From: Gammaproteobacteria bacterium
GTDB lineage: Bacteria; Pseudomonadota; Gammaproteobacteria; Eutrophobiales; Eutrophobiaceae
Assembly: GCA_965221695.1 (NCBI GenBank)
Contig: OZ244905.1
Span: 544,001-608,000 of the forward strand
Length of the DNA stretch: 64,000 bases
Direction of reading: 5' to 3'
Part shown: positions 36,909 to 52,932 of the stretch, piece by piece
Layout: each line of letters begins with the position of its first letter
How positions within the stretch are numbered: the first letter of the stretch is position 1
Program-made: the position numbers and the translations under genes
Notes under the pieces: generated by a model
Database searches by the model: none
The model's input: the letters and a program-made list of their open reading frames with translations, nothing else
What the model was told of the DNA's origin: nothing

Positions 36909-38249
36909 ATGAGCCTGCGCTTCCGACTCGCGCTGCTGATTACTTTGTTGTTCATCGCAGTGTTGTGCGCCGGCAGCGCGTACGCCATTTTCAATGCCCG
37001 CAAGACCATTACGGAGGAAATAGAGTCCGCAGTGCTGCTGACGTCCAACATGATCGCCGCATCCGTTTCCGCAATACAAAGTTCGGGCGACATGAACCTG
37101 TTCGACGAGTTGCTGCACGAATTGGCCAGGCTGGAGATGACGCGCCACATGGATACCATCATATCACTGGACTTAGGCGCAGGTTCCGCTCAGCCGCTAC
37201 AACCGGTGCCACCGATTGATGCTGACGCACCGGGCTGGTTCATCAACCTGGTCAAACCCCCGGTAAGGGAATACAAGCGGGTCATCACGAGTATCGGCTC
37301 CGCCGGAACGGAGATTATCATCCGTGCCGACCCGTCGGCTGAGATTTCAGAAACATGGCTTGAAACCCGTTATTTCCTGCTGCTGTTACTGCTGTTCACT
37401 GCCCTGGCAAACTTGCTGATTTATTTCATCCTGGGCAGGGACCTGGCGCCCATCGAAGCGATCCTGTCCGGACTGGAGCGTATTGAAAAAGGCGATTACC
37501 GGTTGCGCCTTCCGAAATTCACTTCCGTTGAGTTCACGCGTATCTCCGAACGTTTCAACCACCTCGCCGGCGTCCTGTTATATAACAGGGAGGAAAACAG
37601 ACGCCTGACCCGGCGTTCCCTGGAGATACAGGAGGAAGAAAGACGGCGTCTTGCACAGGAAGTGCATGACGAACTGGGGCAGTCACTGAGCGCCATCAAA
37701 GCGATCGCCACCTCTATGGAACAGACGCCTGCCGCGGCTGACCAGACCGCGGCCGAAAGCGCGACGCTTATCAAGAACATGGCCGATGATATGTATGGCG
37801 TAGCACGCGGTATCATCAGCCGGCTACGGCCGGCAGTGCTGGATGAACTGGGCCTGGTGCCGGCCATACAACAACTGGTGGATGACTGGAATTCAGCCCA
37901 TGCAGATACTTTCTGCCACCTGGACATCAAGGGCAACTGCGCCACTGCCGCCGACGCAGTGAAGATCAATATCTACCGCATCATCCAGGAAAGCCTGACC
38001 AACGTGGCGCGCCATGCCGCGGCAAAAAATGTCCATATCCTGCTCGAACACCAGCCTGGTAACAGCGATCGGTTGGCGCTTGAAATCAGGGACGACGGCG
38101 CCGGTTTCGACCCTGACAAAACTCGCTCAGGCATGGGCTTGACCGGCATCCGGGAGCGGGTGGACAGTATGGGGGGCGAGTTCGACCTGGCAACGGAGCC
38201 GAACAAAGGTGTGCATTTGGCTATAATGTTACCGCTGGAACCTGCTTAA
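36909..38249 (+). CDS. Membrane sensor histidine kinase (HAMP, HisKA_3), MoxY/MxcQ-like
   Basis: Two TM segments, periplasmic PGWF..LV and ADPSAEISETW motifs, ERRRLAQEVHDELGQ, QESLTNVARHA, DDGAGF. Confidence 0.88.
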   Translation: MSLRFRLALLITLLFIAVLCAGSAYAIFNARKTITEEIESAVLLTSNMIAASVSAIQSSGDMNLFDELLHELARLEMTRHMDTIISLDLGAGSAQPLQPVPPIDADAPGWFINLVKPPVREYKRVITSIGSAGTEIIIRADPSAEISETWLETRYFLLLLLLFTALANLLIYFILGRDLAPIEAILSGLERIEKGDYRLRLPKFTSVEFTRISERFNHLAGVLLYNREENRRLTRRSLEIQEEERRRLAQEVHDELGQSLSAIKAIATSMEQTPAAADQTAAESATLIKNMADDMYGVARGIISRLRPAVLDELGLVPAIQQLVDDWNSAHADTFCHLDIKGNCATAADAVKINIYRIIQESLTNVARHAAAKNVHILLEHQPGNSDRLALEIRDDGAGFDPDKTRSGMGLTGIRERVDSMGGEFDLATEPNKGVHLAIMLPLEPA

Positions 38250-38256
38250 TGCACTT

Positions 38257-38907
38257 ATGAAAAACACAAACAGCAAAATCAGAATCCTCCTCGTCGACGA
38301 CCATGCCGTTGTGCGCGCCGGCTACCAGATGCTGCTCAAGCAGTCTGACAAGATGGAGATCATCGCCGAAGCATCCAACGGCGAGCAAGCTAACAAGCTG
38401 TTTACCGAACTCAAGCCGGATGTCGTGGTTATGGACCTGTCGCTGCCCGGTATCAGTGGCCTGGAGGCGATACGGCGCATCCTTAGCAAAGATCCAAATG
38501 CCAGGATCCTGGTGTTCAGTATGCATGAGGACACGGTATTCGTAGACCAGGCGCTGCGTGCCGGCGCATGCGGCTACCTGACCAAGAACAGCGCGCCAAA
38601 GACCTTGCTCAAGGCCATCGAAGAAATCGCGGAAGGCAGGCATTACATCGACGACCGGGTGGTGCAACACCTCGCATTCCAAAAGGCACGGGACGAGATC
38701 GGGCCGTTTTCCAGCCTGTCGCCCCGGGAGTTCGAGATTTTCTGTCTGCTGGCGGAAGGGCTCAACACCAACGAGATAGCAAGCCGGCTGTCCATCGGCT
38801 ACAAAACTGTCGCCAACTACAGCTCTCAGATAAAAAACAAGTTACAGGCCAACACCACCGCGGAGCTGGCCCGGTTGGCCATCCGGCACAACATCCTGCA
38901 GGCCTGA
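38257..38907 (+). CDS. NarL/LuxR-family response regulator, MxaB/MxcE-like
   Basis: LLVDDHAVVRAG, VMDLSLPG, GYLTK, LSPREFEIF..KTVANY helix-turn-helix. Confidence 0.92.
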   Translation: MKNTNSKIRILLVDDHAVVRAGYQMLLKQSDKMEIIAEASNGEQANKLFTELKPDVVVMDLSLPGISGLEAIRRILSKDPNARILVFSMHEDTVFVDQALRAGACGYLTKNSAPKTLLKAIEEIAEGRHYIDDRVVQHLAFQKARDEIGPFSSLSPREFEIFCLLAEGLNTNEIASRLSIGYKTVANYSSQIKNKLQANTTAELARLAIRHNILQA

Positions 38908-39036: not shown

Positions 39037-39660
39037 TTACAGTTTACTCTTTACCAGTTCATATACGGTTTCGGTATCGATGTCCGCGCCGGACAGTATT
39101 TGCTCCAGCTTGTCCCGCCGGTCATTCACGAACGCCTCATCCCTGATACCGCCGATGTTGATATAGACGTTCAAAGCGGCGCTGCGCAGCGCCGCGTGGG
39201 CCGCCAGCACCGCGACACCGGCATCGCTGATGACATTGAGGTTGCCTTTCTCCGCAACGGGGCGGCACAACCCAATGACATCGGCACAAAGTTGCGCACA
39301 GGCAAGGGGCACATCGGTCGCCTCTTTCAAGGCCGACTGGATGGCCTTGGACCTTGCCGCCTTCTCCTCTTCGGTCTCTTTGGCCATACCGTAGGCATCC
39401 ATCACGTTGTTGAACACATCAATGTCCGCCTGGATCATGCCGGTCAGCCGGGTGCGCAGGTCCTCTGACTGTTGCAGCAGGGCCTGCATCTCCTGTTCCA
39501 CATGTTCATATTTCTTCTTACCGACAGTGAAGTTTGCGACCATGCTGACCAACGCCGCGCCCATAGCGCCCATGATCGCAGCGGCGCTGCCGCCACCGGG
39601 AGTAGATGCCTTTGAGGCTAACTGGTCAAGAAATGACTGCAATTGCTGTTGCTGGAACAT
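39037..39660 (-). CDS. fchA: Methenyltetrahydrofolate cyclohydrolase
   Basis: FLDQLASKASTPGGGSAAA, GAALVSMV, ATDVPL, GNLNVISDAGV, LNVYIN; adjacent to mtdA. Confidence 0.9.
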   Translation of the reverse strand: MFQQQQLQSFLDQLASKASTPGGGSAAAIMGAMGAALVSMVANFTVGKKKYEHVEQEMQALLQQSEDLRTRLTGMIQADIDVFNNVMDAYGMAKETEEEKAARSKAIQSALKEATDVPLACAQLCADVIGLCRPVAEKGNLNVISDAGVAVLAAHAALRSAALNVYINIGGIRDEAFVNDRRDKLEQILSGADIDTETVYELVKSKL

Positions 39661-39967: not shown

Positions 39968-40825
39968 ATGAAAAAACTTCTGTTTCAATTGGATACCGAC
40001 CCTCATGCCGCCGTGTTCGACACCGTAGTCGGTTTTGATGGCGGCGCTGACCATGTCATCGGGCATGGCGGCTGTACCCCGGACAACGTGCGCGCGCTGG
40101 TAGACGGCGCCATCTTTACCCGCAGCCCCAAGGAAAAGAAAAACACCGCGCTGTTCATCGGCGGCAGTGACATGGTCGCCGGCGAAAAGTTGCTGGATGC
40201 GGTGCAGAAGGTGTTCTTCTCCAATTTTCGTGTCTCTGTGATGCTGGACAGCAACGGCAGCAACACCACTGCGGCGGCAGCGGCCGCCAAGCTCTTGAGC
40301 AGCGGCGGCGTTGCCGGAAAAAAAGTGGTGATACTCGGGGGAACCGGCCCGGTCGGCCAGCGCGCCGCAGTGATGCTGACCCGGGAAGGCGCCGAGGTTG
40401 TATTGTGCTCCCGCGGCCAGGAACGCGCCCAAGCAGCCTGCGATGCCATCAAAGACCGATTCGGCGTGGACATAACACCGTTGGGCACCGCAACCGGCGA
40501 AGACCGGGCACGCGCCGTTGAAGACGCCAGTATAGTGATCGCAACCGGCGCCGCCGGGGTTCAGTTACTGGACCGTGAAGCCTGGGAGAACAACGCATCA
40601 ATCGAGATGCTCGCCGACGCCAACGCCACCCCACCGCTGGGCATAGAAGGCGTGGACATGATGGACCGCGGCGAAGTGCGCAACGGCAAAACCTGCTGGG
40701 GCGCAATCGGTTTCGGCACCCTGAAGCTTGCGCTGCACCGGGCTTGCATCGCAAAGCTGTTCGAAAGCAACGACCAGGTTCTCGACGCCGAGGAGATCTT
40801 CGCACTGGCGAAAACCATGACCTGA
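39968..40825 (+). CDS. mtdA: NADP-dependent methylene-H4MPT/methylene-H4F dehydrogenase
   Basis: MKKLLFQLDTD..VFDTVVGFDGGADH, IFTR, MLDSNGSNTTAAA, GGTGPVG, NATPPLGIEG, LKLALHRACI: matches the MtdA pattern. Confidence 0.93.
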   Translation: MKKLLFQLDTDPHAAVFDTVVGFDGGADHVIGHGGCTPDNVRALVDGAIFTRSPKEKKNTALFIGGSDMVAGEKLLDAVQKVFFSNFRVSVMLDSNGSNTTAAAAAAKLLSSGGVAGKKVVILGGTGPVGQRAAVMLTREGAEVVLCSRGQERAQAACDAIKDRFGVDITPLGTATGEDRARAVEDASIVIATGAAGVQLLDREAWENNASIEMLADANATPPLGIEGVDMMDRGEVRNGKTCWGAIGFGTLKLALHRACIAKLFESNDQVLDAEEIFALAKTMT

Positions 40826-41024: not shown

Positions 41025-43523
41025 ATGAAGATACCAAATGTTGCATTATTGATATTACTGATCATATTCAACTCAATGCCGGGCATCACCGCGGCGCAGG
41101 AAGATGTGGAAGAAATCGTTGTGATCGGTGTTACGCCTTCTCGGGACGGGGCGGGATTATCTGAAGATAAAATACCTTACCGGGTACAATCAGCGTCGGC
41201 AGAGGATATCGATCGGTCGCAGAGCCTTGATATATCCGATTTTCTCAGGCACAACCTTGCCAGCATCACCCACAATGATGCGCAGAACAACCCCCTGCAG
41301 CCGGATATACAATACCGCGGTTTCACTGCCTCGCCGCTGCTGGGCCTGTCGCAAGGCATGTCGGTGTACCAGAACGGCGTGCGCATCAACGAACCACTGG
41401 GCGATACGGTAAACTGGGACCTGCTGCCTGAATCCGCGATACACAGTATTGACCTGATCGGCGGCGCCAATCCGCTGTTTGGCCTGAATACGGTGGGCGG
41501 AGCGCTGTCGGTGAATATGAAGGACGGCTTCAACAGCGATGGCCACAGTGTGGAAGTGTACGGCGGTTCGTTTGAACGTATTGTTACCTCAGTGGAGAGC
41601 GGCGGCAACAATGGTTCGCTGGGTTATTATGCAAACGTCAGTTATTTCGATGAGGACGGATGGCGCGATGAATCACCATCCGATGCGCTCAACCTGTACG
41701 GCAGCCTGAGCTGGCGCAGCGCGATGTCCCGCTTGAACCTGAACGTCCAACATGGCGACAGCAAACTGATCGGCAATGGCGCGATCCCCGAGGAATTGCT
41801 GGCCGATGACCGGGATGCAGTCTTCACAGCCCCCGATGTCACTGAGAACGACTTGATCATGGTCAGCCTGGATGGCAGCCACAACTTCAATGACAACATG
41901 AAGCTCAATTTCAACATTTTCTATCGTGAAAATGATGGCTCTTCATTCAATGGCGACGGCAGTGAATTTGGCATTGAGTTCGACGATGACGGCATGTGGA
42001 TGCTGGTTGAAGAGGACGATGACGATGATGATGACGATGACGACAACGGCCATGACGACGATGACGATGATAACGGCAATGGCAACGACGATGATGACGA
42101 CGATAACGGCCATGATGACGATGATGATGACAATGGCCATGACGACGATGACGGCGACCACGACGAGGAAGAAGGCGTTGACACATACGGTGACGGCGAT
42201 CTTTCAGATGTGGGCATCGTTGCCATCAACAATACCAGCAGCCGCCGTCAGGAAAGCTACGGCACGGATATCCAGTTGACGTTGATGAACGACCTGATGG
42301 GCATGGAAAACCAGATGATCGTGGGCTTCACCTATTACAAGGGAGAAAGCACATTCCGCTCCGAAACGGAAATCGCCGACCTGGACCCCATAACCCGCAG
42401 CACCGTGGGCCTGGGCGCCGGCGTGTTCGTTGAAGATGCCAGGACCAACCTGGAGACGGAAACGGAAACCACCAGTTTTTACTTCATGAACGCGCTGAGC
42501 CTGTCGGAACAGCTTACCCTGGTCGTGTCCGGACGCCTGAACAACACCTTGATCGACCTTCAGGACCTCTCAGGCGAGCGTCCCGAACTGAACGGCGAAC
42601 ATGACTTCTTCCGCTTCAACCCGGCGGTGGGTCTGACATACCAACCCATGGATAACATCAATATCTACGGCAGTTACAGCGAATCGAACCGCGCCCCGAC
42701 GCCGATCGAACTTGCTTGCAACGACAGCGTCTATACACGTGCGCAATTGTTTGCCGACGACCCGGATGATGTTGATTTTGAATGCCGCCTGCCCAATGCG
42801 TTCCTGGCGGATCCACCCCTGAACGATGTGGTAAGCAAGAGTTTTGAAGCAGGCGTTCGCGGCAACATCGGTCTGGCCGATTACCACTTAGGATTCTTCC
42901 ATACCACCAACCACGATGACATCCTGTTCCAGACCACCGGCAGGGCCACCGGCCTGTTCGCCAACGTGGACAAGACCCGCCACCTGGGTTTTGAGGGACA
43001 GTTGAACGGTTCGACTGATAATATCAACTGGTTCCTGGCCTACACTTACCTGGAAGCAACTTTTGAAGATGATTTCATCGCAGTGGAGAACGAGAACCAT
43101 CCGCTGGGCGATGACATTGAGGTCGAATCAGGTGATCGCATACCGGGACTGCCGAAACATACGTTGAAACTGGGGGCTGATTACCTGCTGTTCGAGCGTC
43201 TGAATGTCGGTTTTGACGTAGCCTACACCTCCAAAAAGGAACTGCGCGGCAACGAGGGCAACGACCGGGATGAAGACGGGTACCTGAACCCCGTAGACGG
43301 CTATGCTGTGGTCAACCTGCGTGCCAGTTACCAGGTCAACGATAACATCCAGATTTTCGGCCGGGTCACCAACTTGTTTGACGAAGACTACGAGAGCTTT
43401 GGCCTGCTTGGCGAAGAACCGGACGAAGTGGCAGTAGAGGAGTTTGAGGACTATGAAAGCCCGCGCTTCGTCGGACCGGGAGCGCCGCGAGCAGGATTTG
43501 TCGGCATAAAGTTGAGTATGTAA
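41025..43523 (+). CDS. TonB-dependent receptor with Asp/His-rich repeat insertion
   Basis: Signal peptide, TonB box EEIVVIG, plug QPDIQYRGF..NGVRINE..FGLNTVGGAL, barrel end RVTNLFDEDY..PRAGFVGIKLSM. Confidence 0.93.
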   Translation: MKIPNVALLILLIIFNSMPGITAAQEDVEEIVVIGVTPSRDGAGLSEDKIPYRVQSASAEDIDRSQSLDISDFLRHNLASITHNDAQNNPLQPDIQYRGFTASPLLGLSQGMSVYQNGVRINEPLGDTVNWDLLPESAIHSIDLIGGANPLFGLNTVGGALSVNMKDGFNSDGHSVEVYGGSFERIVTSVESGGNNGSLGYYANVSYFDEDGWRDESPSDALNLYGSLSWRSAMSRLNLNVQHGDSKLIGNGAIPEELLADDRDAVFTAPDVTENDLIMVSLDGSHNFNDNMKLNFNIFYRENDGSSFNGDGSEFGIEFDDDGMWMLVEEDDDDDDDDDDNGHDDDDDDNGNGNDDDDDDNGHDDDDDDNGHDDDDGDHDEEEGVDTYGDGDLSDVGIVAINNTSSRRQESYGTDIQLTLMNDLMGMENQMIVGFTYYKGESTFRSETEIADLDPITRSTVGLGAGVFVEDARTNLETETETTSFYFMNALSLSEQLTLVVSGRLNNTLIDLQDLSGERPELNGEHDFFRFNPAVGLTYQPMDNINIYGSYSESNRAPTPIELACNDSVYTRAQLFADDPDDVDFECRLPNAFLADPPLNDVVSKSFEAGVRGNIGLADYHLGFFHTTNHDDILFQTTGRATGLFANVDKTRHLGFEGQLNGSTDNINWFLAYTYLEATFEDDFIAVENENHPLGDDIEVESGDRIPGLPKHTLKLGADYLLFERLNVGFDVAYTSKKELRGNEGNDRDEDGYLNPVDGYAVVNLRASYQVNDNIQIFGRVTNLFDEDYESFGLLGEEPDEVAVEEFEDYESPRFVGPGAPRAGFVGIKLSM
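42009..42173 (+). repeat. Coding tandem repeat (D6-NGH)n, ~27-nt unit
   Basis: EE-D10-NGH-D6-NGNGN-D6-NGH-D6-NGH-D4-GDHD-EEE with mixed GAC/GAT codons. Confidence 0.95.
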
Positions 43524-43574: not shown

Positions 43575-43688
43575 CATTACTATGACTTAACCTCAGAGGT
43601 TTCTTAACCCTGATTTTCTGCCAATCCATATAAATTCACCGCCAAAACGGGTACACTTGCGTCCCTTTACTGACATGACGTGATCAAT

Positions 43689-44231
43689 ATGGAACAAGCC
43701 TACGCAGACATTATCAGCGAAATAGAAAACCTGGAGCGGCCAGGATTGGAAAAGACGCCGCGGCGCGCAGCGAAGGCCATGCGTTTTCTTACACGCGGCT
43801 ACAACCAGAGCCTGGATGATATCATTAACGACGCGCGCTTCCCGACAGAAAGCTGCGAAATGGTTCTGGTCCAGGATATTGAGCTCTATTCGCTGTGTGA
43901 ACACCATCTGCTGCCGTTTGTCGGCAAATGCCATGTGGCCTACATCCCGGACAAATTTGTGATAGGTCTGTCCAAGATCGCCCGAATCGTCGATATGTTC
44001 GCGCGCCGGCTACAAAATCAGGAAAACCTGACTATGGATATTGCCAAGGCTATGAATGCCGCAACAGAAGTTGAAGATGTCGCTGTGATTATCGAATCCA
44101 AGCATATGTGCATGATGATGCGCGGGGTGGAAAAACAGAATTCATTAATGAAAACCTCAGCCATGCTGGGTATTTTCAGGTCCAACTCCAGCACTCGGGC
44201 AGAACTGTTTTCGCTCCTGAAATCTACTTGA
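43689..44231 (+). CDS. folE: GTP cyclohydrolase I
   Basis: [43 protein letters not shown]. Confidence 0.96.
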
Positions 44232-46132: not shown

Positions 46133-47356
46133 ATGTCGTACAGAAAATATGATCGAATGCCTATGAGAATAAATATTAGAGACAGAAGAAATTTAAATCC
46201 CATTTTGGTTTGCGCCCTGTTTTTCATATTTTCATTAGGCAGCGCCGTGGTGAAGCCACACGGCGAAAATGGGATGGTAACGTCCCTTGGGAAGGAAAAA
46301 GCTGTTTTCTATAAAAATTATTATTTTCCGAATACAGAAAAATTGGCAGAAGACGAAATGCGGGTAATTGCTTTGGGAACGGGTAATCCTGATCTCCGCA
46401 AATCACAAGTTGCTCCTTCCTGGTTTGTTGAACTCGGAAACGGAGATAAGTTTTTCTTCGACGTGGGTATTGGTTCACAGGTCAATTTTCCCATGTTGCA
46501 AATATCATTTCGCGAAGCAGATAAAGTATTTTTGACACATCTACATGTTGATCATGTGGGTGACTTGGATGCCTTATGGTTGTCTGGTTGGGTTTCAAAT
46601 CGCTACGACAGACCACTAAGGGTATGGGGCCCCAGTGGTGCGAAAAAGAAGTATGGAACCAGATATTTTATTAATAAGCAAAAGGAAGCATGGGCTTGGG
46701 ATGTCGATAGTCGTCACGGCAAACTTCCAGCTGCAGGCGCCGGAATAGAAGTTAACGAATTCGATTTTTCCAGAACACAAGTCGTCTATAACGAAAACGG
46801 TGTCAGGATTACATCAATCCCCGCGCTGCATATTATGGATGGTCCGGTTAGTTATCGCCTGGACTGGAACGGATTGAGCTTCGCCTATTCAGGTGATACA
46901 ACACCAACCCGTTTTTTTGTTGATGCAACCCAAGGTGTTGATCTGCTGATACATGAGGCTTTTCCTACAGCCAGTCAAATGGAAGAACGTATCGGATGGG
47001 ACAGGGAAACCGCCAAGGTTGTCGGTGAATTTGTGCATACAGCGCCGAGTGATGCAGGTAAGGTTTTTGAAATGACGAAACCACGTCATGCTGTGGCCTA
47101 TCATTTCTGGAATGATTTTGATTTAATTCATGAAGTGTATGATGAAGTAAGGAAGTTCTACAAAGGACCGTTATCATTAGCAGCGGATGGCATGGTATTC
47201 AACATTACCAAAGAGAAGATCATCGTCAGGGAATTGGTTGGACCTACTAATACTTATGAAGAAGCTGTTGATCCTGAAGCTTTTGGTAATGCAAAACGCG
47301 GCAAGAATATTCCCCCTTCTGACTGGTTGCTCAAGGGAAGACTATTTTCAGATTAA
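46133..47356 (+). CDS. Exported MBL-fold metallo-hydrolase (RNase Z/arylsulfatase-like, GntH-like)
   Basis: ALGTG, FFFDVG, THLHVDHVGD, VWGPSG, SGDT, LIHEAF, HT motifs; N-terminal hydrophobic segment; start uncertain; AT-richer than flanks. Confidence 0.85.
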   Translation: MSYRKYDRMPMRINIRDRRNLNPILVCALFFIFSLGSAVVKPHGENGMVTSLGKEKAVFYKNYYFPNTEKLAEDEMRVIALGTGNPDLRKSQVAPSWFVELGNGDKFFFDVGIGSQVNFPMLQISFREADKVFLTHLHVDHVGDLDALWLSGWVSNRYDRPLRVWGPSGAKKKYGTRYFINKQKEAWAWDVDSRHGKLPAAGAGIEVNEFDFSRTQVVYNENGVRITSIPALHIMDGPVSYRLDWNGLSFAYSGDTTPTRFFVDATQGVDLLIHEAFPTASQMEERIGWDRETAKVVGEFVHTAPSDAGKVFEMTKPRHAVAYHFWNDFDLIHEVYDEVRKFYKGPLSLAADGMVFNITKEKIIVRELVGPTNTYEEAVDPEAFGNAKRGKNIPPSDWLLKGRLFSD

Positions 47357-50536: not shown

Positions 50537-51295
50537 TTAGAATTCCATTTCAATCTGCCAGTGGGGAGTATGCGCCGCGCTACCTTCGGTCAGGCCGATT
50601 AACCATATCAGGTTTACTTCAATGGTAACATCTCCGATCTTGACGTCGCGGTAAAATGCCGGTCCAAGTCGGTGGTCCTGCGCCGATAACGCCGGCAGGT
50701 ACTTGATTTCGCCCGGTGCGCCAAAGGCCTCGAAACCGATTGCCGTATCGTCATCAAGGCTGTATTTTGTGCGCCAGATATATTCCAGTTCTGTGCTCTC
50801 GTCCGCAGCGCTACCGAACTGCTGCTCGAAATTCACGTTCAGGATATGTTCAAAAGCGCCGGACACGCGCCGGAACAGGAAACGCCCCTCCAGGTTATGG
50901 GGTTCGTCACCCTCATCGTTCGCCTCGATTTCCACATGAAAACCGAAATCCAGCCAATACCTGCCCTCCTCGGTCAACTGCAAGGTATTCTCCCAGCCCA
51001 GGATGTCGTATTTGACGCCTTTCCCCGCAGGTTCGATTACACTGGCGGTGATGGAGGTGGCCCAATAGTCAGTGACGCCGTATTCAAGTTCGAACTCCTG
51101 GTGCTTGAAGCCTTGGTACTCGTCGTCATCATCGATCACCACGTTGCCGATGATCTCGAATTGCAGGTCTCCCTTCTCCACGATTGGCGAGTAAACCTTC
51201 ATATCCGTCAGGTCGGCCCTGACATCGGCGGCTGTCGTAACAGCAATGATCAAAGCCAGAAAAACGGCAAAATTCCTTGTAATAAATTGCATCAT
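50537..51295 (-). CDS. Hypothetical acidic outer-membrane beta-barrel protein
   Basis: Signal peptide ending VRA-D, alternating aromatic strands, C-terminal WQIEMEF beta-signal. Confidence 0.72.
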   Translation of the reverse strand: MMQFITRNFAVFLALIIAVTTAADVRADLTDMKVYSPIVEKGDLQFEIIGNVVIDDDDEYQGFKHQEFELEYGVTDYWATSITASVIEPAGKGVKYDILGWENTLQLTEEGRYWLDFGFHVEIEANDEGDEPHNLEGRFLFRRVSGAFEHILNVNFEQQFGSAADESTELEYIWRTKYSLDDDTAIGFEAFGAPGEIKYLPALSAQDHRLGPAFYRDVKIGDVTIEVNLIWLIGLTEGSAAHTPHWQIEMEF

Positions 51296-51328
51296 AGTGT
51301 GTCCGGGTGAAAAGTTCACGCATGATAA

Positions 51329-51408: not shown

Positions 51409-52251
51409 CTAGCCGAACCTTGTCGAAAACCTGAATACCTGCGCGTCGCACACATCAATGCAGCGACCGCAGTTGGTACAATCGCCGTGCAGGACCACCG
51501 AGGTGTCGGTATCCCGGTCGGGTTTCAGGGCCGGGATGATCACGTGAGGCTCCGGGCATACCCGAAAACAGTCACCGCAGTCGGTACAGGCCGCGCGTGC
51601 TGCGGCATTCATGCGCACCATTGAGCGTTTACCGAGCAGACCGTAGAACGCGCCCACCGGACACAGGTGGCTGCACCAGCCCCGGCGCGTAACCACCAGG
51701 TCGAACAGGAATACAGCCAACACAATAAGCCAGGCCAGTCCGATACCGAATACCAGTCCGCGCTGGAGCATGGTGATCGGGTTCAGCGCTTCCCAGGCAA
51801 TGGCGCCGGTGATGGCCGATACCGCCAGCGCCACGACCATGATCCAGAGTCGGGTCGATTTTTTCAGCGCCCAGCTCAGGTTCAGCTTTAACCTGTTGCG
51901 CAGCCAGTTGGCGGCATCGGTGACGATATTGATAGGGCATACCCAGGAGCAATATACCCGTCCGCCGACCAGAAAATAAAAAATAAAGATGATGCCGGCG
52001 CCGGTGATCGCGAGCTGTCCCGGAACATGTCCTGTAGCCAGGGATTGCAGCAGGATGAACGGGTCGGTCAGGCTAACCCTGTCCAGCACGATACTGGAGG
52101 CCAGGTTGCCCTTCAGCCACCAGATGCCGAACCAGGGACCAAGCAGGAACAGCAGCAGGATGGCAAACTGGCTGGTCCGGCGCAGTAACAGCCACTTGTT
52201 CCTTTGCCACAGGCTGCGACCGGTAGCCGGCGACGCCGCGCTAGCCAGCAT
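51409..52251 (-). CDS. napH: Quinol dehydrogenase membrane subunit NapH (NapH/MauN family)
   Basis: RRTSQ, LTDPF, GGRVYCSWVCP, RGWCSHLCPVG, two CxxCxxCxxxC motifs. Confidence 0.88.
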   Translation of the reverse strand: MLASAASPATGRSLWQRNKWLLLRRTSQFAILLLFLLGPWFGIWWLKGNLASSIVLDRVSLTDPFILLQSLATGHVPGQLAITGAGIIFIFYFLVGGRVYCSWVCPINIVTDAANWLRNRLKLNLSWALKKSTRLWIMVVALAVSAITGAIAWEALNPITMLQRGLVFGIGLAWLIVLAVFLFDLVVTRRGWCSHLCPVGAFYGLLGKRSMVRMNAAARAACTDCGDCFRVCPEPHVIIPALKPDRDTDTSVVLHGDCTNCGRCIDVCDAQVFRFSTRFG

Positions 52252-52278
52252 AAACCGTTAAAACAACAGGCAGGCAAT

Positions 52279-52932
52279 TCATGCAATCCTGCCGGCATCA
52301 TGTTTGGCGAGATGTCTGGGCAGCACCTTGATGGAGGCTTCTTCGGTCACGCAGCCCTGCTCGCACTTGCCGCAACCGGTGCAGTGTTCTGCATGCACCG
52401 TAGGCTCGAAATAAATTCGCTTGCCCGCCTGCTTCTGCTCCATGGTAATGGCTTCGTCCCGGATCGGGCAGGCAACGTAACAGGCGCGGCAGTGGGCGAT
52501 GCCGGTGACGCTGTAACAGGTATCCGGACCGGTCAATACCGCGACACCCATATCGGCGTTGCGAATATCGGTAAGTTCCTTGCTTAACGCGTCCGTCGGG
52601 CAGGCTGCAACGCAGGGGATGTCTTCACACATCTCACAGGGGATATCACGGGCGATGAAATAAGGCGTCCCCGTAGCTACCTCGGAGCCAAACTCAGCCA
52701 GCTTCAGGGTGTCGTAGGGGCAATCCCGCACACACAGGCCACAGCGCACGCAGGCGCCGCTGAAGTCCTCCTCCGCTATTGCCCCGGGCGGGCGGATGGC
52801 GCGCGCCGGTGTGGAGGCGGACCGCCGCGCATATGACCCGAGCAACAGTCCGAGGATGCTCATCGAACCCACCGTATGAGCGCATTGGCCGATGAACTGG
52901 CGCCGGTCAAGCCTGTTGTTTTTTCCGCTCAT
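52279..52932 (-). CDS. napG: Ferredoxin-type protein NapG (NapG/MauM family)
   Basis: Tat-like RRQF, IRPPGA, CVRCGLCVRDCP, CEMCEDIPCVAACP, CTGCGKCEQGC. Confidence 0.88.
   Translation of the reverse strand: MSGKNNRLDRRQFIGQCAHTVGSMSILGLLLGSYARRSASTPARAIRPPGAIAEEDFSGACVRCGLCVRDCPYDTLKLAEFGSEVATGTPYFIARDIPCEMCEDIPCVAACPTDALSKELTDIRNADMGVAVLTGPDTCYSVTGIAHCRACYVACPIRDEAITMEQKQAGKRIYFEPTVHAEHCTGCGKCEQGCVTEEASIKVLPRHLAKHDAGRIA

Follow-up and report, generated by a model that had tools for sequence, protein, structure and literature searches.

A polyaspartate loop on a LutH-like TonB-dependent receptor in a gammaproteobacterial genus, a possible metal binder

Introduction

The closest described relative of the receptor treated here is LutH (MexAM1_META1p1785; Mext_1853) of Methylorubrum extorquens, a TonB-dependent receptor reported to be required for La uptake, whose gene is followed by lanM in the lut order (PMC7391723, PMC6850437). 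LanA of Methylotuvimicrobium buryatense 5GB1C, a gammaproteobacterial TonB receptor and part of the lanthanide switch, is described as set apart from the LutH-like receptors (PMC12482762). PqqU (YncD), which serves quinoproteins, is reported to bind an anion via Arg/Lys, with Y99, R304 and R365 as signature residues (PMC12124388), and methylolanthanin, the product of NIS synthetases, has its own receptor gene, mluA (PMC11317620). A built-in extracellular metal loop is described for ZnuD/TdfJ of Neisseria, a zinc binder in which the His/Asp/Glu clusters of loop 3 pass zinc to a buried site (PMC2895646, PMC9426574). Seawater holds lanthanides at picomolar levels, and their acquisition by bacteria at such levels without known chelators or lanmodulin is a stated open question (PMC12542740). 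The present analysis concerns a receptor gene whose product carries a long Asp-rich tract. The gene lies in a stretch of 64,000 nucleotides (the window, whose positions are used below) from a gammaproteobacterium of the family Eutrophobiaceae (assembly GCA_965221695.1, contig OZ244905.1, positions 544,001 to 608,000 of the forward strand).

New here is a genus-level polyaspartate loop, a putative binder, on a known, LutH-like kind of receptor. The receptor is probably a lanthanide importer. The tract may be an accessory metal-capture loop on the LutH-type importer of a methanol oxidiser that has only XoxF, and not a requirement for import, a reading that is held tentatively. Among the papers listed in the literature searches, which reached neither the first description of LanA nor most journals behind a subscription, no receptor-borne lanthanide ligand and no polyaspartate loop was found.

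The receptor and its tract

The features of the receptor are as follows.

41025..43523, + strand: LutH-like TonB-dependent receptor, 832 aa (Pfam plug and barrel, AlphaFold2 model, homology)
41958..42218, + strand: loop 4, predicted to be extracellular, residues 312-398, which joins strands 7 and 8 (strands counted in the model)
42009..42173, + strand: low-complexity Asp/Asn-Gly-His tract that tops a small hairpin of loop 4 (composition, pLDDT, length variation, tree)
42693..42827, + strand: loop 7, residues 557-601, with the signature PTPxELxC...CxLPN...DPPL (alignment)
43413..43457, + strand: another acidic patch, residues 797-811 of loop 11 (sequence)

The tract comprises residues 329-383, encoded in frame with the whole open reading frame (ORF). 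It contains 34 Asp, 6 Asn, 6 Gly, 5 Glu and 4 His in the order E2, D10, NGH, D6, NGNGN, D6, NGH, D6, NGH, D4, GDHD, E3. A recount thus agrees with the 55 residues, 34 Asp, 5 Glu and 4 His of the preliminary description; its (D6-NGH)n unit is only an approximation, the repeats being present but irregularly spaced (D10, D6, NGNGN, D4, GDHD). The mixed codon use and intact frame noted there also hold, with 18 GAC and 16 GAT. No other of the 10,548 open frames of the whole genome is so dense in Asp, with 28 Asp in the densest window of 40 residues and 22 in the runner-up. An assembly artefact was discarded, since the tract is present in independent assemblies: a separate one, 99% identical (L009/G308), carries it with one additional residue. 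It was parsable in 67 of the 70 closest proteins. In four public runs, all consisting of contigs, one contig crosses the repeat and has 177 letters where 171 stand here, yet only 19 letters flank it on one side, too few to count as bridging. In another case (P0250 and P0251) the receptor is split in two just past the tract on one 7.4-kb contig, by an error or a frameshift.

The protein has the composition of a TonB-dependent transporter, with PF07715 and PF00593 over cut-off, a plug at about residues 48-160 and a barrel of 22 strands at residues 173-831 in the AlphaFold2 model (83-row alignment, mean pLDDT 79, pTM 0.80). The strands of that model are joined by long loops at one end and by turns of 2-7 residues at the other, as in TonB barrels, so that loop 4 is placed on the extracellular side; the position between barrel strands and the surface exposure proposed at first are therefore borne out by prediction, and a periplasmic tract was rejected on the same model. 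Loop 4 comprises 87 aa with 48 Asp/Glu, 4 His and no Lys or Arg, and the pLDDT below 50 at residues 329-382 indicates that the tract is disordered. Two further acidic segments named in the preliminary description are present, residues 577-586 in loop 7 and 797-811 in loop 11, a loop that has 13 Asp/Glu and 2 Lys/Arg in all. Within loop 7, Glu562, Cys565, Cys587 and Asp596 are invariant in 83 sequences, and the signature is kept in all four groups (117 classified of 145 rows); judged on sequence, the loop is a candidate part of a conserved substrate site. Solved structures include no close relative, a single weak sequence match being obtained (5FP1, E 5e-6), and the ESM Atlas matches bear only generic TonB receptor names.

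A LutH-like receptor

The identity of the receptor was read from gene context, because no named NCBIfam family reaches its cut-off on it and no LanA or LutH model is among the matches. The lut clusters were surveyed with a Methylorubrum homologue as query, and 29 loci, picked mainly for long flanks, were compared. Six of them carry a beta-propeller, a small protein, an ABC ATPase, a permease, an exported protein and the receptor in this order, which matches that of lut (PMC7391723, PMC6850437), five with a binding protein in front. To a receptor in this position the tract receptor is homologous over its full length (29% identity, E 1e-108), with shared invariant signatures in plug and loop 7. 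Conversely, the tract receptor is the best match of lut-position receptors in its genome (E 3e-52 and 2e-54; next 6e-17 and 4e-16), exceeding the next receptor by more than 30 orders of magnitude. Homologues thus occupy the lutH slot, once followed by lanM, in the complete lut run of G212. In G266 the lut-type ABC genes, a MoxY kinase pair, the receptor and XoxF stand together, and distant relatives (L023, L038, L235) retain the lut link; two of six opened regions showed no partner gene. On plasmids, six of 32 matching records were opened. A Methylobacterium nodulans plasmid has the receptor, a regulator and an EF-hand protein that matches lanmodulin (E 5e-38), and a Sphingobium plasmid has the homologue in a ped-type cluster with the dehydrogenase motif WDFDGVN.

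Co-occurrence was studied in 301 genomes of the phylum, with the receptor taken at E 1e-60 and at most three candidates scored per genome, so that misses are possible. The receptor family is present in 22 genomes and the pattern WD[YF]DG[VI]NE, whose second Asp we take to mark lanthanide-type dehydrogenases, in 43. The pattern was found in 20 of the 22 receptor-positive and in 23 of the 279 receptor-negative genomes, an association that the Fisher value overstates because the genomes are related; in 12 of the 20 the enzyme lies less than 40 kb from the receptor. In the two receptor-positive genomes without the pattern, PQQ dehydrogenases that exceed the TIGR03075 cut-off have an Asp at the same place (WDYDGVNT, WDFDSTQ). 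Both receptor and motif are frequent close to the source genome. Of 22 genus genomes, 20 have the receptor (completeness is 83% and 77% in the two others) and 20 the motif; of 36 family genomes, 33 have the receptor and 34 the motif.

The source genome, a single contig 96.85% complete, encodes pqqC and a single XoxF-type enzyme (C1:3175654-3177675, WDYDGVNE), so a lanthanide-type enzyme, on which the first proposal had depended, is at hand. A tblastn search of this genome with the M. nodulans MxaI gave no match at E 1; the family search for MxaI, like that for the copper-receptor family, matched no control genome and is uninformative alone. LanM was not found there by tblastn, nor was a homologue of a two-PepSY, LanP-like protein from a genome of the same family. 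That protein, of 175 aa, Glu-rich and exported, is encoded divergently from the receptor in G251 (L169:8474-9001, - strand) and is lanpepsy-like, two PepSY domains being the architecture reported for lanpepsy (PMC9988556).

Taken together, homology and gene context indicate, with good confidence, that the receptor is a LutH-like lanthanide importer. The class of substrate, which the preliminary description had considered unreadable from sequence, is hence readable. Some results count against this assignment. The link to AM1 LutH (META1p1785) or Mext_1853 rests on gene order, not on alignment with their own sequences, the M. extorquens proteins matched being from other strains; annotation places no lanthanide gene near the homologue in the other four of the six opened plasmid matches; no lut permease was found in the source genome; and the association is one-way, 23 motif-positive genomes having no receptor match. 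The receptor of the source genome is not accompanied by an ABC transporter and lanM. Its gene differs from those of lut clusters in standing beside mtd and fchA genes and a MoxY-type system, far from a lutA/lutB-like pair (C1:1232469-1234353, 0.65 Mb away). That pair belongs to a region, C1:1214000-1234400 (L166, L167), with pqqC, pqqE-like and pterin/H4MPT-type genes and an aldehyde ferredoxin oxidoreductase module. In L023 and L038 a module of this type directly follows the kinase pair and receptor, an order which suggests that the receptor moved away in the source genus.

Import of PQQ, or of a PQQ-metal complex, for quinoproteins in the manner of PqqU, with the tract as an incidental feature, is quite improbable. 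The best fold match of the model is indeed PqqU with bound PQQ (9C4O, E 6e-37, 16% identity), the receptor family is tied to PQQ-dehydrogenase clusters, and pqqC has no match in five of the 22 receptor-positive genomes. Siderophore receptors, however, score almost as well in the fold comparison, and the PqqU profile NF041535 gives 84.5 bits against a cut-off of 1200, so that PqqU identity was rejected; a separate, PqqU-like receptor of the source genome reaches 398.7 bits. Moreover, pqqC is encoded by the source genome and by 17 of the 22 positives, and the receptor occurs in just one of 12 pqqC-positive genomes lacking the strict lanthanide motif, where the adjoining dehydrogenase has a variant of it. 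A loop with 48 acids would be expected to repel a tricarboxylate, and lutH mutants lose La uptake (PMC7391723, PMC6850437).

Two dehydrogenases deserve separate mention. A quinohemoprotein-type enzyme of G218 (C14:158314-159909, L162) has the Asp two places past the catalytic Asp (WDFDSTQ) and is a possible lanthanide-binding variant. In the source genome a divergent PQQ dehydrogenase of 613 aa (C1:3160237-3162075, - strand), below the TIGR03075 cut-off, has WGYDVAS at the metal-binding motif.

Origin and variation of loop 4

Loop 4 was compared among receptors over one set of alignment columns. Over these the source receptor has 98 aa with 49 acids and no Cys, whereas six lut-position Methylobacterium receptors have 67-69 aa, of which 6-9 are acids, 5 are bases and two are Cys. 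As the loop of those receptors is near neutral, the substrate is not defined by the tract. Relatives at 55-65% identity (41 parsable among matches 72-120, 8 unparsed; a few are named Woeseia or Microbulbifer) have loops of 80-99 aa in which 17-34 residues are acids and 0-3 are bases; two Cys are present, and no Asp run exceeds 4. All 21 loci of the genus have Asp runs of 5-12 in loops of 64-128 aa, and 20 of them have lost both Cys, the tract usually replacing the disulfide loop. Seven loci of other genera of the family keep the Cys and have short runs (two were read in part, and one more had no anchor). On sequence comparison the tract is genus-specific. A quick tree of 57 rows, built with loop 4 removed and with long branches as outgroups, groups 17 tract-labelled rows and one hybrid in one branch (SH-aLRT 99). 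As this branch nests among acidic-loop forms, the sequences indicate that loop 4 was acidic first and was expanded later in one genus.

Among the 67 parsed tracts (65-100% identical proteins) the low-complexity part ranges from 10 to 86 residues, which supplies the length variation in homologues that had been sought, with near loss in one protein (P0030). Composition is far more uniform: D, G, N, H and E account for 3099 of 3146 tract residues and Lys/Arg for 8. In 100 Asp runs from 20 genus loci the third positions are C (GAC) 303 times and T (GAT) 251 times, and the codon switches in 255 of 454 neighbouring pairs (225 +/- 11 when shuffled). Asn is followed by Gly in 307 of 348 cases, with Asn-Gly spacings of 9, 7 or 10 in 161 of 241 gaps. 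Of 30 single residues that interrupt Asp runs, 18 are His, the commonest. Slippage would give uniform codons and neutral drift would also strike first and second positions; constraint at the protein level is therefore suggested by these counts, which come from kin genomes and so are not independent. Read from sequence, composition and frame are kept while length is free. Genome-wide slippage does not occur, because mutS and mutL are present and such low-complexity windows affect only 11 of about 2438 ORFs, and with the mixed codons this dismissed a simple microsatellite or mutator slippage. A comparison of the loop with phage DNA gave no match.

In an unrelated family member from a metagenome (L128), loop 4 contains a separate Asn-Gly/Asp insertion (105 aa, where its neighbours have about 50), possibly an independent expansion at the same site.

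A His-rich counterpart in the same genome

Acidic tracts occur in only two of the 82 TonB receptors of the genome, with 29 and 28 Asp/Glu per 40 residues, the next having 15. The other one (C1:3351504-3354350; L168:7514-10354, + strand) is ZnuD-like, with 946 aa and 427.8 bits (below the cut-off of 950). Its tract of His, Asp and Glu is very long and has 13 His per 40 residues, against 4 His in the tract receptor. The open frames of this ZnuD-like receptor measure 717-982 aa in the genus and 662-700 aa in six other genera of the family, and its loop 31-253 aa in six parsed genus loci and 24 aa in one locus outside. Several genus genomes contain two copies of it. An accessory metal-loading loop is favoured because the only receptors to have expanded loops are the two predicted to import metal ions, each with matching chemistry. 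This parallel, resting on two genes, is the best argument in favour of a metal role.

ZnuD, with its built-in loop and buried site, hence serves as the working model for the tract (PMC9426574, PMC2895646). The two differ in family, in the loop concerned (loop 3 in ZnuD, loop 4 here), in chemistry (His-rich against Asp-rich) and in the disulfide, which holds the ZnuD loop and has been lost here; zinc binding is shown for ZnuD, while the tract is a putative binder. ZnuD identity of the tract receptor itself was rejected, as NF038289 has no match at E 0.001 and loop 3 lacks His. The four His of the tract could still mark a transition-metal receptor whose antenna takes zinc, nickel or cobalt, given the frequency of His among the interruptions and the His/Asp clusters used by ZnuD (PMC9426574, PMC2895646). 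This is, nonetheless, most improbable: members of the tract clade (P0027, P0060, P0066, P0068) have loops without His, the His-rich ZnuD-like receptor is encoded separately, and the context of the family is lanthanides or PQQ, not zinc.

Proposed mechanism and its limits

Under the proposed mechanism Ln3+, free or chelated, would enter the periplasm by way of the TonB-gated barrel and there supply XoxF, a route shown for LutH in Methylorubrum. Specificity would reside in the conserved core (plug and loop 7), common to receptors without the tract. The polyaspartate part would behave as a disordered polyanion whose Asn-Gly turns lie between carboxylates. In salt water, Ca2+/Mg2+ would occupy most of it; Ln3+ coming by would be bound weakly, though in preference to these ions, and then passed on to the pocket, so that capture would be no more than a few times faster. 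Asp-rich calcium-binding repeat peptides are reported to lack order in the metal-free state and to favour lanthanides, bound at 5-70 uM, over calcium (PMC12152738). Like thrombospondin type 3 repeats, Dx[DN]xDG loops and lanmodulin EF-hands, the tract sets carboxylates around an Asx-Gly turn, and such peptides bind lanthanides (PMC12152738). The Dx[DN]xDG-like loop of the preliminary description appears only as a variant, DxDxNG four times and DDNGNG once. With Asn in place of the third Asp, neither the Glu12 nor the helices of an EF-hand and no Pfam match, the resemblance to calcium repeats is compositional.

Several results weigh against a capture role. The strict Dx[DN]xDG motif is absent from the tract, as is the strict motif with a downstream Glu, and loop 4 matches no Pfam family up to E 1. 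The acids conserved throughout the family lie in the plug, barrel, loop 7 and loop 10, and none in loop 4. The near-neutral loop of lut-position Methylobacterium receptors means that the family works without an acidic one, and among close relatives the length varies as described, down to the near loss in P0030. The receptors of the genome are acidic in general, with a mean net acid fraction of 0.065, whereas Methylobacterium and soil members have 0.004-0.02; this is consistent with salt water, and part of the acidity may hence be salt adaptation. For assumed values of 30 pM lanthanide, an ionic strength of 0.7 M and a cell radius of 0.5 um, the computed occupancy of a micromolar site is 4e-7 to 6e-6, the Debye length of 0.36 nm screens electrostatics within 0.4 nm, and enlargement of the target from 1 to 2.5-3.5 nm improves capture only 1.6- to 3-fold. 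Because occupancy is so small, the loop could not store seawater lanthanides, and faster encounter or ligand exchange is the most that it would bring; the micromolar affinity and the calcium competition to be expected would limit the gain.

The same results bear on a different explanation, in which the receptor imports lanthanides and the tract is of no help, being a tolerated hydrated expansion or an entropic shield against phages, bacteriocins, proteases or host proteins. Selection would then hold frame, polarity and acidity and leave length free. This is a close rival, if somewhat less probable. It agrees with the very unequal tract lengths, down to the near loss in P0030, with the absence of the tract from lut-position receptors, with the general acidity of the receptors and with the small physical gain of an antenna, and TonB receptors such as PqqU are reported to act as phage receptors (PMC12124388). 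A shield, however, would be equally useful on the other 80 receptors, yet tracts are found only on the two predicted metal-ion receptors, Asp-rich in one and His-rich in the other. A tolerated expansion is at odds with the lack of genome-wide slippage (mutS, mutL; 11 of about 2438 ORFs), and the Asn-Gly order is conserved more than charge alone would require.

Two stronger roles for the loop were considered. Uptake without a chelator, by a polyaspartate loop of tunable length that strips Ln3+ from carbonates or particles, with an Asp-rich loop standing for lanthanides and a His-rich one for zinc, so that composition would encode the metal, is unlikely. Contact mining, in which polyaspartate grips lanthanide minerals or particles (phosphates, carbonates, oxides) and loosens ions beside the pore, seems very improbable. 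Polyaspartate binds calcium minerals, the flexible loop has a long reach (estimated radius 2-2.6 nm), and chelator synthetases (IucA/IucC, NRPS condensation domains) were not found in the source genome; with 84 TonB barrel matches in that genome, though, the chelators of other organisms would be usable.

To return to the accessory capture loop, the lanthanide antenna of the preliminary description survives in part: its lanthanide link stands by homology and context, but the tract is dispensable in the family and reduced to about 10 residues in close relatives. The accompanying claim of an undescribed system is not upheld, given a LutH-like receptor, lut-position relatives without the acidic tract and the ZnuD precedent for a built-in metal loop. 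Natural alleles, in which the tract has from about 10 to 86 residues while the rest of the protein changes little, offer a direct test of the role of the loop. If it binds lanthanides amid calcium, it would also be of interest for rare-earth recovery, as a simple binder made of repeats and displayed at the surface; otherwise the LutH family would still be extended to a gammaproteobacterial family with XoxF only, and loop 4 would be a free surface.

Gene neighbourhood

The receptor is surrounded by the following genes.

36909..38249, + strand: sensor kinase with LapD/MoxY periplasmic domain, HAMP and HisKA_3, an MxaY-like architecture (Pfam)
38257..38907, + strand: LuxR-type response regulator, partner of the kinase (Pfam)
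39037..39660, - strand: fchA, methenyl-H4F cyclohydrolase (NF045657 over cut-off)
39968..40825, + strand: methylene-H4MPT/H4F dehydrogenase family gene, mtdA/B (Pfam Mpt_N, E 7e-32)
43680..44231, + strand: folE, GTP cyclohydrolase I for the pterin precursor, downstream neighbour (NCBIfam over cut-off)

The receptor gene starts 199 bp past the mtd-family gene, and its position after this gene and near a MoxY-like two-component pair is as first described, the mtdA subtype resting on the mtd-family match. An mtd-family gene adjoins the receptor in 13 of 38 loci, and folE lies 3' of it in 14 of 38. Homologues of the kinase stand immediately upstream of the receptor in three distant loci (L023, L038, L235), and the response regulator also adjoins it in these and in L034, L035 and L046. 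MxaY, which has the LapD/MoxY domain, is reported to control the lanthanide switch in M. buryatense (PMC6115532). A promoter and terminator scan gave counts at shuffle level (5 against 4.2; 8 against 4.9).

Other observations

Elsewhere in the window, positions 46133-47356 (+ strand) encode a protein of metallo-beta-lactamase fold over the cut-off of NF041257, guanitoxin hydrolase GntH (439.7 against 333 bits), a label that may be too broad, no search for other guanitoxin genes having been made. Positions 50537-51319 (- strand) encode an exported protein of 260 aa, aromatic and acidic like a small outer-membrane barrel, with no Pfam or NCBIfam match. Two ferredoxin-type genes with 4Fe-4S domains by Pfam lie at 51409-52932 (- strand), and presumably resemble napH and napG. 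Two further repeats were seen in the source genome, a long run of perfectly repeated Gly-Asp dipeptides in a protein that also has RTX-like repeats (C1:2055711-2057396, - strand) and a long Pro-Glu repeat in another ORF (C1:1292379-1293776, + strand).

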